Under the pieces are notes generated by a model. That model made no database searches. It saw only the letters and a list, made by a program, of their open reading frames with translations, and had not been told where the DNA came from. Shown here in pieces: positions 1-7,728 of a DNA stretch of 7,854 nt. This DNA comes from Octopus sinensis. Its lineage: Eukaryota. The position numbers and the translations under genes are program-made. The stretch is taken from positions 1 to 7,854 of the forward strand of contig NW_021828721.1 of assembly GCF_006345805.1 (NCBI RefSeq). Direction: 5' to 3'. Each line of letters starts with the position of its first letter. Positions within the stretch are counted from its first letter, which is position 1.

Positions 1-169
1 CATATATACAACGGGTTTCTTTCAGTTTCCATCTACCAACTCCACTCACAAGGTTGGTTGGCCAAGGCTATAGTAGAAGACACGTGCCCAAGGTGCCACG
101 CAGTGGGAACTGAACCCGGAACTATGTTATTGGTAAGCAAGCTACTTACCACACAGCCACTCCTACGCC
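1..169 (-). mobile_element. tRNA-derived SINE family A (octopus OK/OR-type), 5' half, cut by window edge
   Basis: Reverse complement reads GGCGTAGGAGTGGCTGTGTGGTAAGTAGCTTGC...GGGTTCAGTTCCCACTGCGTGGCACCTTGGGC..., with Pol III A-box-like TGGCTGTGTGG and B-box-like GGTTCAGTTCC. It aligns by eye with the copies at 1221 and 2285. Confidence 0.9.
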
Positions 170-2284: not shown

Positions 2285-2623
2285 GGTGAAGGCGTGGCTG
2301 TGTGATAAGAAGCTTGCTTCCCAACCACATGGTTCCGGGTTCAGTCCCACTGCGTGGCACCTTGGGCGTCTTCTACTATAGCTTCGGGCCGACCAAGGCC
2401 TTGCGAGTGGATTTGGGAGACAGAAACTGAAAGAAGGTCTTTGTGTCTGCGTTTGTTTCATCAAAATCCCTTGACGAGCGATCGCGGTGTGCTTATGAGA
2501 CCGATAGAATAAGTACTTGGCCTATAAAGAATTCGTCATGGGGTCGATTTCTTCGGCTAAAACTATAAAGGCAGTGCTCCAGCATGGCCGTAGTCAAATG
2601 AATGAAGCGTGTAAGAGAATAAA
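2285..2623 (+). mobile_element. SINE family A with internal deletions
   Basis: Runs from GGCGTGGCTGTGTGATAAGAAGCTTGCTTCCCAACCACATGGTTCCGGGTTCAGTCCCACTGCGTGGCACCTTGGG to GGCAGTGCTCCAGCATGGCCGTAGTCAAATGAATGAAGCGTGTAAGAGAATAAA. It lacks the CGTAACTTAGCGG segment present in the 1221 and 2977 copies. Confidence 0.92.
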
Positions 2624-2780
2624 CTAATATGTATATTATATACTAGCTTTAAAGCTTCATCCCGTGCGGACATTTCTGATAGCTCCTGTGGAGGGCTAAT
2701 TGGGCCTAATAGCATAACTATGAGGTTAAACTGTAGGACTATGATATGTCTAAAATGTCAGCAGTTAAGGACGGATAATA

Positions 2781-2976: not shown

Positions 2977-3010
<34 letters not shown>

Positions 3011-3219
3011 ATACGTTTGTGTGTCTGTGTTTGTTCCCACCAACATCGCTTGAAACCGATGCTAGTGTGTTTACGTCCACGTAACTTAGCGGTTTGGCAA
3101 AAAGACCCCAATAGAATAAGTACTAGGCTTACAAAGAATAAGTCCTGGGGTCGATTTTCCTGACTAAATGCGGTGCTCCAGCACGGCCGCAGTAAATGAC
3201 TGAAACAAGTAAAAGAATA
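2977..3219 (+). mobile_element. SINE family A, 5'-truncated (starts in internal (GT)n)
   Basis: (GT)n at 2981-3009, then TTTGTGTGTCTGTGTTTG...CGTAACTTAGCGG...AGAATAAGTACTAGGCTT...CTGGGGTCGATT...GCGGTGCTCCAGCACGGCCGCAGTAAATGACTGAAACAAGTAAAAGAATA. Confidence 0.92.
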
Positions 3220-3373: not shown

Positions 3374-3378
3374 ACAAT

Positions 3379-3574
3379 TCTTTCTACTGTAGCCCCAGGA
3401 AAGCCGAAATCTCGTGGAAGGGGACTACTCTACGATATCGACCCCAGTGCTTCACTGGTACTTATTTTATCGACATACAAAGGATGAAAGTCAAAGTCTA
3501 CCTCGACGTGATTTGGGTTCAGTACGTAAAGAGTCGGAAGAAATGACACTAAGCATTTCATCCGACACGTTAAC
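3379..3574 (-). mobile_element. SINE family B, diverged
   Basis: TTTCTACTGTAG...ATCGACCCCAGTGCTTCACTGGTACTTATTTTATCGAC...AGGATGAAAGTCAAAGTC...GAAATGACACTAAGCATTTC. Confidence 0.85.
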
Positions 3575-3583
3575 AACAACAAC

Positions 3584-3649
<66 letters not shown>
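3572..3649. repeat. (AAC)4(AAT)22 trinucleotide microsatellite
   Basis: Perfect run. It is the (ATT)n tail of the minus-strand SINE starting at 3650. Confidence 0.97.
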
Positions 3650-3847
3650 CTTTTCTACTAAAGGCACAAGGCTTGAAACTTTTAGGGAGAGGACTAGTCG
3701 ATTACATCGACCCCAGTGTTCAACTGGTACTTAATGTATCGATCCCAGAAGGATGGAAGGCAAAGCCGACTTCGGTGGAATTTGAACTCACAACGCAGCG
3801 ACGAGTGAAATGTCGCTAAGCATTTCTTTCAGGGTGTTAACGATTCT
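3650..3847 (-). mobile_element. SINE family B
   Basis: CTTTTCTACTAAAGGCACAAGGCTTGAAA...AGTCGATTACATCGACCCCAGTG...GGAATTTGAACTC (B-box GAGTTCAAATTCC on the minus strand)...GCTAAGCATTTC...TAACGATTCT. Confidence 0.9.
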
Positions 3848-4609
3848 TTTTTACTTTAGGCACAAGTCCCGAAATTTTGGGGGATGGGGCCAGTCGATTA
3901 CATCGACCCCATTACGCAACTGGTACTTAATTTATCGACCCTGAAAAGATGAAACGCAAAGTCGACCTCGGTGGTTGCAAAGTCTACCTCAAAACGTAAA
4001 GCCGGACGAAATACCTATTTCTTTATTGCCCACAAGGGGCTAAACATAGAGGGGACAAACAAGTACAGACAAACGGATTGAGTCGATTACATCGAGCCCA
4101 GTGCGTCACTGGTACTTAATTTATCGACCCCGAAAGGATGAAAGGTAAAGTCAACCTCGGCGGAATTTGAACTCAGAACGTAACGGCAGACGAAATACCT
4201 ATTTCTTTACTACCCACAAGGGGCTAAACACGGAGGACAAACAAGGACAGACAAACGGATTAAGTCGATTACATGGACCCCAGTGCGTCACTGGTACTTA
4301 ATTTATCAACCCCGAAAGCATGAAAAGTAAAGTCAACCTCAGCGGAATTTGAACTCAGAACGTAACGGCAGACGAAATACCTATTTTCTTTACTACCCAC
4401 ACAAGGGCTAACACAAGGACAAACAAGGACAGACAAACGGATAAGTCGATTACATGGACCCCAGTGCGTCACTGGTACTTAATTTATCGACCCCGAAAGC
4501 ATGAAAAGTAAAGTCGACCTCGGCGGAATTTGAACTCAGAACGTAACGGCAGACGATATACCGCTAAGCATTTCGCCCGGGGTACTAATGATTCTGCTAG
4601 CTCGCCGCC
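3845..4609 (-). mobile_element. multimeric SINE family B: head (4609-4563) + three ~182-bp units + terminal unit with a different tail (4015-3845)
   Basis: There is a single tRNA-like head, GGCGGCGAGCTAGCAGAATCATTAG, and four B-box-region/body segments. They are joined at identical AAAGAAATA|GGTATTTCGTC junctions. Confidence 0.88.
4016..4562. repeat. tandem repeat of 3 units (4016-4199, 4200-4381, 4382-4562; 184/182/181 bp)
   Basis: Each unit runs TATTT(T)CTTTA...GGACAAACAAG.ACAGACAAACGGAT...CCAGTGCGTCACTGGTACTTAATTTATC...GAACTCAGAACGTAACGGCAGACGA.ATACC. Confidence 0.95.
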
Positions 4610-4612
4610 GTC

Positions 4613-4630
4613 AATAATAATAATAATAAT
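4613..4630. repeat. (AAT)6
   Basis: Perfect run, forming the tail of the SINE at 4631-4841. Confidence 0.9.
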
Positions 4631-4841
4631 CCTTTCTGCTATAGGCACAAGGCTTGAAATTTTAGGGGAGGGGACTAGTCAATTACATAGACCCCAGTGT
4701 TTAACTGGTACTTAATTTATCGATCCTGAGAAGATGAAACGCAAAGTCGACCTCGGCGGAATTTGAACTCAGAACGTAAAGGCAGACGAAACAGCGCTAA
4801 GTCTTTTGCTTGGCGTGCTGACGATACTGCCTGCTCGCCGC
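4631..4841 (-). mobile_element. SINE family B, full-length monomer (~210 bp)
   Basis: Minus strand reads head GCGGCGAGCAGGCAGTATCGTCAGC, B-box GAGTTCAAATTCC, body, and tail CCTTGTGCCTATAGCAGAAAGG followed by (ATT)n. Confidence 0.92.
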
Positions 4842-5299
4842 GTTGATAATAAAATTACGAATAATAGTAACAACAACAACAGCGATAATTCTTTTATTAT
4901 TTTATTAGCCACAAGGGCAACAATACCAATAATGGTAAGTCACATGTTAAGTAATATGAATTATTTTTTTGTATTATAGAATTCTGTGACAGAGCTCATA
5001 CCAAAATAAAAAAATTGTTTTACGTAAACAGCCAAAAATTTTAGTTTGGTAAGTCAAGGCCTCGTTGACTACAGAAAATATTTCGCTGCAAGGTATGTGC
5101 ACTAACAGCGTATGCTGACGTCACCAAATACCAAAAATAATGGTACGCATGTGTACTATTAATGCATGTGTGACAAACAATTGTGTTTTAAAGATGAACC
5201 AATAGTATTTGTGAACTGTTTGTATCTGAGACTGACGACTGCACAATGGAATGACAGAAGAATGGGAGGCGATGAGTTTGATATATCAATGTCTAGGTC

Positions 5300-6406: not shown

Positions 6407-6439
6407 CAAGGGTGAGACAAAATTTCAAACAAATTTATT

Positions 6440-7123
6440 TTGATATGGGGTAGGACTGCTTTGGCAGTAATTACAGCTTGAATTGTACGAGGTATGGACT
6501 CGTACAAAGTTTGAATTGTTTCCAAAGAAATTTTTGTCCATTCTTCAGCTAAAACAGTCTCCAGTTCTTGTAGTGATGATGGTGGAGGTTATCGACTCCT
6601 TACTTGTTTTTTTCTAAATGCACCATAAATGTTCAAGAATATTGCTATCTGTGGACTGTGGTTGCTAGATAAGATGTTCGACGTCACTAAAATGTTCCTC
6701 GTACGATTCAGTAACAACTTTAGCCGTGTGAAATGCTGGATTATCATACTGAAAGATTGCGTTTACCTCCGGAAACAGTTCCGCAACCATAGCATGAATT
6801 TGATCAGTTAAAATACTTAAATAGCCTTAACTATTAAATCTGCGATGAAGGGAAACCATTGGGCCGGCGGATTTGCAAGATATAGTCCCCCTCCTCCGCC
6901 CCAGATCATCATAGATCGTCCACCATGTTTAAGAGTTGGAAGAAGGCAGTCTGGGTCAAATGCTTCTTTTGTCTGTCTCCGCATATATACTCAGCCGGTG
7001 GTTGGAAAAAAGGTAAACGGATGACTCGTCCGAGAAAATAACATTCCATCACTGCTGTGGGGTTTTACCCAACTCTTGTTTTTTCTTTTCGTTTTCCCGT
7101 GTTTCGTCAAATTAAGCTGCAGA

Positions 7124-7166
<43 letters not shown>

Positions 7167-7541
7167 CGTCAATTCCTTTGAAACGATTGTTTTTAAAATA
7201 GTGGTTTTCTGATAGCAGCTCTCCCGTGAAATCCGGCTTTGTGCAGCTCCCGGCGAACAGCTTTTGCGGAAACTAGGTTCTTGAGGTGTACTTGGGAGCT
7301 GTACTTTCGTGATACTTTCTAACAATTCGCTTAAGGTTCCGACGGTCCCTATCTGAAAGTTTTGGTTTTCTTCCGGAGTTTTGTTTCGACGAGGAGGATT
7401 TTTTACCCTCTTTCTCAAAAGATATTACTTTCGAGACAGTACTTCTTGATGCACCAAACATTTCGGCTGTTTTCGTTACGCTAGCGCCTGCCATACGAGC
7501 ACCAACAACTTGACCTCTTTGAAGTTCGATAGATCTGTCAT
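6440..7541 (-). pseudogene. Tc1-like transposase pseudogene
   Basis: ATG at 7541 (MTDLS...RGQVVGARMAGASVTKTAEMFGASRSTVSKV, HTH), then SGRKPKLSDRDRR and TVRRELHKAGFHGRAAIRKP. Catalytic motifs are VIFSDES (D at 7028-7030), FQYDN (D at 6743-6745) and QSTDSNILEHLW (E at 6632-6634), with KHGG between the two aspartates. The C-terminus reads LYESIPRTIQAVITAK. There are multiple stops and frameshifts, and a minus-strand AATAAA at 6434-6439. Confidence 0.92.
7091..7166 (-). pseudogene. 76-nt 18S rRNA fragment inserted in the transposase
   Basis: Minus strand reads GAAACTTAAAGGAATTGACGGAAGGGCACCACCAGGAGTGGAGTCTGCAGCTTAATTTGACGAAACACGGGAAAAC. The conserved eukaryotic 18S is GAAACTTAAAGGAATTGACGGAAGGGCACCACCAGGAGTGGAGCCTGCGGCTTAATTTGACTCAACACGGGAAAAC, giving 4 differences. 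Confidence 0.93.
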
Positions 7542-7728
7542 TTTAATGAATTTTAACTACCTTTTTGTGATATCTGAAAAGAAACAGTAATTTTAGTAAG
7601 ACTTATTCAGCAGCACTAATAATAAATTTAAAAAAACATAAAAATAAACAAGTTTTGACGGTTTTACAGATATTTCAGAATTACGATGCTATAATGCTAG
7701 GAGTTTCCAGTATTTCGTCCGACCGCTG

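Follow-up and report, generated by a model that had tools for sequence, protein, structure and literature searches.

A tandem SINE array with two tail types and a recurrent junction between the internal tail and the head hairpin loop

Tandem SINE arrays with the structure TSD1-(SINE)n-TSD1 occur in the bivalve Scapharca broughtonii (PMC11481361), and in squamates SINE-derived satellites (sSat) consist of units of 70-290 nt, each a partial SINE, and have extended terminal units, boundaries fixed throughout the family, few variants per genome and an uncommon form carrying both SINE termini (PMC10702118). Tandems are also formed by SINEU-3 of crocodilians, of which 313 of 347 copies flank Mariner-N4 and which multiplies in tandem by sequential insertion (PMC4494074). 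In animal non-LTR retrozymes, for which rolling reverse transcription has been proposed, the tandemly arranged repeats measure 150-300 bp, every one of them carries a type I hammerhead, and the circles produced are abundant and highly self-paired (PMC7761336; bioRxiv 10.64898/2026.07.22.740005). In the following we describe a SINE array in a window of 7,854 nt, the window being the whole stretch of DNA that was analysed, and compare it with these systems.

The array and its SINE family

Alignment identified seven copies of one SINE family within positions 3376-4845, all in one orientation, read on the minus strand and following each other in the order E, B1, B2, B3, A4, C and D. This chain includes a tandem with a period of 182 (3892-4562; 3.7 copies, 90% matches), and it extends beyond positions 3845-4609, to which the preliminary description referred. 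Complete heads are present in E and B1. The upstream monomer E (4613-4845) is A-tailed with an (ATT)n end and adjoins the multimer head, the 5' part of which (4563-4612) was judged by eye to be tRNA-like, with an A-box-like stretch at about 4599-4588, and is the sole full head in the multimer. Unit B1 (4382-4562) comprises the 3' part of the head with the B-box-like GAGTTCAAATTCC (about 4537-4525), the core and a B tail, and is followed by B2 (4200-4381, 182 nt), its sister duplicate, and B3 (4016-4199, 184 nt), both with B tails as well. The next unit, A4 (3845-4015), has an A tail, is more diverged and is rearranged in its B-box region. B2, B3 and A4 all begin at the last base of the head loop, and GGTAT(A/T)TCGTC borders every unit. 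Downstream, copy C (3573-3847) is A-tailed, 5'-truncated at AGAATC, which corresponds to 4595 in the head, and ends in (ATT)n(GTT)n, and copy D (3376-3572), the most decayed of the seven, starts a few bases deeper in the head, its 5' truncation lying at GTT of the A-box region.

The B tail of B1-B3 is GT-rich and ends in AAAGAAATA without a simple repeat; the A tail is found in A4, E and C, with an (ATT)n end in E and C. Core identity is 95-97% within B1-B3, 82-84% between the B units and A4, and 69-87% for the remaining pairs. Measured against B1, which is a member of the array and not a consensus, and over a small number of copies, core identity along the chain is 97% for B2, 95% for B3, 83% for A4, 77% for C and 74% for D. 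Of the arrangement first described, one head followed by four bodies, the single full head of the multimer was confirmed, and the bodies are three B-tailed units and one A-tailed unit with a more diverged core. No TSD around the multimer could be resolved inside (ATT)n.

Several further details were observed in the more decayed part of the chain. Short tail-to-head overlaps in the A-box region mark the A4/C and C/D joins (AGAAT and GTT, respectively), and decay rises toward D. The B-box stretch of A4 (3975-3995) is swapped for a short local rearrangement like the downstream GAGGTCGACTTT, and a similar word, GAGGTAGACTTT, is present in copy D. In addition, TTTGCGTTTCATCTT is common to A4 and E (3876-4011 and 4677-4795), and B3, C and D differ there; judged by these letters, A4 and E may either belong to the same sub-subfamily or derive from an older local duplication.

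With a monomer of about 230 nt, seven copies in the window and 135,634-209,274 matching contigs per DNA run, the repeat is a SINE in the SINEBase sense of a short (<1 kb) interspersed repeat with at least 100 copies. For a tRNA head, SINEBase asks for at least 60% identity to a tRNA plus A and B boxes; here, A- and B-box-like stretches were seen in the head by eye only, ARAGORN returned 0 tRNA matches, Rfam returned 0 matches on 3840-4620 at E<=10, and a strict B-box pattern search did not pick up the B-box-like stretch of B1. From these box-like stretches we read the head as putatively tRNA-derived. Of the LINE-related 3' region and simple-repeat tail that SINEBase also lists, the (ATT)n end belongs to the A tail, and a hairpin with covariation is common to both tails. 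Over the whole window, Rfam at E<=1 gave 72 matches; almost all of these fell on microsatellites, and 3845-4609 had none. Between 4557 and 4612, 5-7 of the 56 positions are unlike the read majority (among the rows listed). The head is also dimorphic at 4591 (AGAATC/AGAAAC), the letter other than that of the multimer head making up 65% in the RNA run and 29-34% in the DNA runs, and this dimorphism may mark A versus B subfamilies.

No likeness was seen by eye to the cited portion of the bivalve MetaSINE alignments, in which a 66-bp Meta domain directly follows the head, and, with regard to the superfamilies defined by a conserved central domain (CORE, Deu, V and Ceph), motif searches in the supplements of two other papers gave 0 matches. 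In exact-pattern scans, contigs from metagenomes and prokaryote genomes contained 0 matches to the junction motif, and contigs from metagenomes, viruses and genomes contained 0 to core motifs; blastn found no matches among plasmids and phages. Full-text motif and topic searches of the literature, with Repbase, Dfam and the SINEBase supplement outside their scope, found no description of the junction or of such a use of two tails, and the SINE family may well have been named already in Repbase or Dfam. The repeat landscape of the window is presumably that of an octopus genome, and tRNA-derived octopus SINEs, OK, OR1 and OR2, were reportedly described by Ohshima and Okada in 1994.

Other repeats are found elsewhere in the window. 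One or two other SINE-like repeats, one of which may resemble a CORE-type SINE, occupy 2285-2630 (plus strand), 17-164 (minus strand), 1140-1196, 1254-1541 and 3010-3219 (plus strand); they are 74-85% alike, and several end at (TA)n or (TG)n microsatellites. A stretch at about 6407-7727 is likely a decayed Tc1/mariner DNA transposon: its ends are flanked by TA, and a frame on the minus strand (6668-6826) contains FQYDNPAFHTAKVV, which resembles a DDE catalytic stretch; Pfam identified 0 families in this candidate at E<=0.1. A further repeat-like stretch at 380-650 has no second copy within the window.

Junctions, hairpins and tails

The head contains a stem-loop on the minus strand (4552-4577), with the stem 4577-4568/4561-4552 and the loop TTAGCG (4567-4562), the last G of which (4562) is the junction site. 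The preliminary description had placed a stem-loop of about 10 bp here, and this was confirmed, 9 of 10 pairs having probabilities of 0.93-1.0 in the monomer fold and 10 consensus pairs being present over four aligned heads. Likewise, all three junctions were found to join a tail of the form ...AAAGAAA(A)TA to this last loop G, and the palindromes reported for them are present at 4374-4388 (B1/B2, with an extra base and an arm of 5), 4192-4205 (B2/B3, GAAATA-CC-TATTTC, arm of 6) and 4008-4021 (B3/A4, arm of 6). A 6-bp arm would result at 3 of the 147 possible join positions (about 2%), a chance that counts as about one event and not three because the junction is family-wide. GAAAT occurs as a direct repeat in the tail and in the 5' stem strand (4574-4570), so that a microhomology join in which the loop is lost would account for the palindrome.

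The folding energies were unfavourable to invasion of the head stem by the RNA 3' end, as proposed earlier. The duplex between the tail and the 3' strand reaches -3.6 kcal/mol as compared to -11.1 kcal/mol for the native stem, and the pairing of the tail end with the 3' strand has a summed probability of 0.0 in the monomer; 3'-end strand invasion of the intact stem was rejected on these two grounds. The bare palindrome folds with 0 to -1.4 kcal/mol, a second 5-bp helix brings the B2/B3 junction to -8.9 kcal/mol locally, and the junction stem has a probability of about 0.5 in the circular fold. Neither the folds of whole units (z -0.12 and +1.04) nor the circular folds (z +1.3 and -0.8; 200 shuffles each) surpassed those of shuffled sequences.

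Four of 24 sequencing runs were placed on window positions 4378-4685, namely the DNA runs X1 (organism A), X3 (organism B) and X13 (organism F) and the RNA run X23 (organism F), X1 and X3 representing differently labelled organisms and two studies, either of which could be the source of the window itself; four metatranscriptome entries with shares of 0.07-0.09 were left aside. A loose end behind 4562 that continues into the B tail was present in at least 887 of 209,274 contigs of X1 and at least 663 of 208,711 contigs of X3. It is among the best six of X1 and of X3 and not among the best six of X13 or X23; the joints and loose ends listed for the runs are the best supported, and a further 854 joints and 1,658 loose ends lie beyond them. 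The tail-to-head-loop junction is thus likely to be a family-wide, inherited trait of the SINE. Given its recurrence throughout the family, three independent origins of the local junctions were rejected.

The best-supported joint of the RNA run X23 links the B-tail end to position 4595 of the head (318+377 = 695 of 55,209 reads, 132 starts) and was found in 1 contig of X1 and in 0 contigs of X13 and X3; its reads may come from few loci. This joint has no palindrome, only the short direct repeat AGAA, and its position is that of the 5' start of copy C. Junction positions are therefore heterogeneous, a result that the preliminary description had itself named as speaking against a circular or structure-guided origin. 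Joins of the A tail at 4546 are rare, with 3-14 contigs per row among the rows listed. With joints at 4562, 4595 and, rarely, 4546, the junctions are few and recurrent, yet more than one exists. On the plus strand, both B-tail junction sites have the context CY^GCYAR, which was noticed post hoc.

Both tails end in a hairpin with a CUUGU loop (N4-CUUGU-N4), seen as GCCC-CTTGT-GGGT at 4212-4224 on the minus strand, with equivalents at 4028-4040 (B3), 3858-3870 (A4), 4643-4655 (E) and 3662-3674 (C), and with a stem that changes from A(A/G)GC/GCCU to GCCC/GGG(C/U). In a covariation test on five anchored, related tails, in which B1 and D were left out and the structure was chosen by us, 17 of 20 cells were paired (85%), double changes occurred at 3 of 4 pairs, and 2 of 500 shuffles scored as high. 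By analogy with the UnaL2 stem-loop, the CUUGU hairpin is likely a LINE-recognition signal in both tails, and with the B tail read as a LINE-recognition tail, the junction sits where reverse transcription of B RNA would start. In the passages cited, UnaL2/UnaSINE likewise have a hairpin with a 5-nt loop just upstream of the 3' end that is common to related tails; they differ in a GGAUA loop as opposed to CUUGU, and the B tail described here is without a visible terminal repeat (PMC1636434).

The depth of B relative to A tails was 0.38 in the RNA run X23 and 0.025 in the DNA run X13, both of organism F, and 0.26 in X1 and 0.38 in X3. The comparison of RNA with DNA is unreliable, since it sets 150-nt reads beside short contigs and the reference tail is divergent. 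In organism F, RNA exceeds DNA about 15-fold in the relative depth of B tails, an excess that is possibly technical or derived from few highly expressed loci. The RNA run covered the repeat about equally on both strands (49.6% of depth on plus).

Comparison with the runs also revealed letters shared between units of the array. At 4456, 4500 and 4507, B1 and B2 have the same letter, which is absent from 70-89% of run depth, and B3 has the majority letter. One minority letter common to B1 and B2 creates TTTT on the minus strand (4504-4507 and 4323-4326), a potential Pol III terminator. A Pol III transcript would be expected to end at TTTT and thus short of the tail, so that the B1/B2 pair most likely results from DNA duplication after insertion. 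The tail of B3 matches the consensus at the RNA 4595 joint at CTATG, GCAAT and GGGG, and the tail ends of B1 and B2 match the loose-end consensus of X1 and X3, so that two B subfamilies are combined in the array as a mosaic. All three B cores have minority letters in common at 4470 and 4509 (majority elsewhere 72-92% and 75-82%, respectively), so that local or master-level kinship is favoured. At the first letters that tell the two types apart, 12 nt past the junction, A4 agrees with the A-type consensus of the reads. A difference in age between head and core was not significant (Fisher p 0.11-0.30, hand-counted among the rows listed). A single rolling pass over one circle does not fit these data, since identical units would be expected and nested and mosaic units were found; one pass of rolling reverse transcription making the whole array was hence rejected, the differences among B1-B3 being nested and the B3 tail different.

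Origin of the array

We propose that a LINE reverse transcriptase created the junction in one or a few events, and that it was then inherited in read-through multimers, carried by homology into a more decayed A-tailed copy and expanded there by DNA duplication, an explanation that fits better than the others and for which we see as much to believe as to doubt. From the anatomy, the two junctions, the nested and mosaic units and the tail hairpin we infer the following enzymatic steps. Both A and B tails would be recognised by a LINE reverse transcriptase, with reverse transcription starting at the B-tail end, and B-tailed cDNA would be primed at, or jump from, the head hairpin of another copy, where a GAAAT microhomology join with loop loss would leave the palindrome as a by-product. 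Since the B tails are without T4, Pol III could start at the single head and read through them, and the resulting multimers would be copied as a block or into homologous copies of the family. The head and A4 would then represent a more decayed, A-tailed host copy that was entered by B units via homology, and the last unit would have been added in DNA by unequal exchange or slippage, as suggested by the B1/B2 letters missing in B3.

This explanation is consistent with the recurrence of the 4562 loose end in X1 and X3, with the minority letters shared by B1 and B2, one of which gives TTTT, with the mosaic of B tails, with a second junction that has no palindrome, with the covarying tail hairpin, and with the same layout in the cited descriptions of bivalve (PMC11481361) and squamate (PMC10702118) arrays. 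It corresponds to what the preliminary description had offered as its alternative, a single ancestral junction later amplified at the DNA level, which of the earlier proposals fits best with the family-wide junction and the B1/B2 nesting. However, a multimer master copied as a block predicts a last unit as young as the others, and A4 is more diverged; moreover, A4 is A-type from 12 nt past the junction, so that a single stretch of 11 nt may hold both breakpoints, and insertion at a preferred site fits better on that point. Neither a master element nor a partner LINE was found. The non-significant age difference between head and core, the disparity in B/A tail depth between RNA and DNA of organism F, a hairpin covariation drawn from five related sequences and the TSD that could not be resolved also weigh against it.

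Insertion at a preferred site would make the B unit a headless parasite of its own SINE family, homing into the anticodon-arm hairpin (and the A-box loop) by homology-primed reverse transcription, which we consider rather unlikely. In this case, B-tailed RNA would be transcribed together with the downstream stem strand and take its primer from a nick at the tip of the hairpin in any resident family copy, with resolution through annealing to the identical sequence upstream. One headless unit within the common borders would be gained per event, and the B unit would borrow the promoter of its host, including the A box, regenerate its target at each insertion and grow polarised arrays. The A-type letters of A4 immediately past the junction agree with this, as do the AGAATC minority form that the multimer head has in common with copy C, a B3 tail from another subfamily, the drop in core identity to B1 along the chain, the start of C at the second RNA junction with D a few bases further in, the context common to both junction sites, even if noticed post hoc, and the precedent of SINEU-3 for a SINE that inserts at a preferred site inside another repeat (PMC4494074). 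In contrast, the minority letters at 4470 and 4509 in all B cores and the three more in B1 and B2 would be rare among independent draws from the family pool, the rare A-tail joins at 4546 lie at other positions, and the identity gradient is small in number and relative to B1 instead of a consensus. A minority version with circular B RNA as the template appears highly improbable.

It also seems improbable that the array is purely a product of DNA-level events, in which a GAAAT microhomology duplication with loss of the hairpin tip seeded a SINE-derived minisatellite that spread by ectopic recombination or gene conversion via the core, with no RNA step. The B1/B2 nesting and the tail mosaicism are as expected from DNA exchange, and squamate SINE-derived satellites with similar unit lengths and terminal extensions are ascribed to unequal recombination in the passages cited (PMC10702118). 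On the other hand, both known junctions of the B tail coincide exactly with its end, 12 nt beyond the hairpin likely to be recognised by reverse transcriptase, the internal tail is a different sequence and not a truncated A tail, and ectopic exchange would scatter crossovers along the core.

The preliminary description had raised, next to structure-guided template jumping, a circle of about 182 nt copied by rolling reverse transcription. Under this model an RNA would be cut in the head loop, joined to its tail end by a host ligase and copied repeatedly by a LINE reverse transcriptase. The position of the junction at a loop base where 5-6 bp are regenerated, together with the second helix at B2/B3, the B tail without a simple-repeat end, the relatively richer, confounded B-tail signal in RNA of organism F and a unit size within the range of animal retrozymes (PMC7761336, passages cited) would be compatible with such a circle. 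Upon entering the head, depth drops by 13% in X23, the smallest drop of the four runs, and by 21-41% in the three DNA runs. X23 showed no piled ends, and the 4562 junction was not among its listed joints or loose ends, a weak test for a circle, as this is ordinary cDNA of which about 6% was read, with nearly balanced strands and from organism F, where the 4562 junction seems minor, and as a junction read fits a circle or a genomic tandem alike. With no ribozyme (Rfam 0 at E<=10; hammerhead core motif absent on both strands), circular folds no better than shuffles, an invading duplex far weaker than the native stem, a second junction without a stem, units that are nested and mosaic instead of clonal, and no sign of a circle in the RNA run, we regard this origin as very unlikely.

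Comparison with known systems

Retrozymes are like the array in unit size, tandem repetition and a proposed rolling reverse transcription (PMC7761336; bioRxiv 10.64898/2026.07.22.740005), and their hallmarks were not found here: Rfam and the core motif revealed no hammerhead (3840-4620), the circular folds were not unusually self-paired, and membership was rejected on both counts. In SINEU-3 the target belongs to another family and the head is U2-derived, whereas the candidate target here is the head of the family itself (PMC4494074). If B units did home in this way, the targeting of its own family's promoter hairpin by a SINE would be an uncommon form of selfishness, and LINE insertion primed by homology would have an example in nature. 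More surprising still would be a retrotransposing circle without a ribozyme, from which the evidence here points away.

The closest resemblance is to the bivalve and squamate arrays. As in the bivalve, a full head is followed by truncated repeats and a final full tail; the internal tails of the bivalve arrays are truncated, whereas here they are of a second, complete-looking type with its own hairpin, the last unit here is more diverged, and no TSD was resolved (PMC11481361). The tandem partial-SINE units, extended terminal units and shared boundaries of sSat are found here, as are unit lengths in the same range; sSat are further characterised by subtelomeric enrichment and long homogenised arrays. 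In the passages cited, sSat are counted from four middle monomers, and with three repeated units, two of them middle units, the locus stays below this threshold; it also differs from sSat in that the junction coincides with the tail end and a hairpin loop (PMC10702118). In conclusion, the array works like the SINE arrays of bivalves and squamates, and within our searches neither its junction nor such a use of two tails had been described. If our preferred explanation is true, SINE-derived tandem arrays extend to another lineage, with the twist of two alternative LINE-type tails of which one is used inside arrays at fixed head junctions, a feature of modest interest, mainly for those who annotate repeats.
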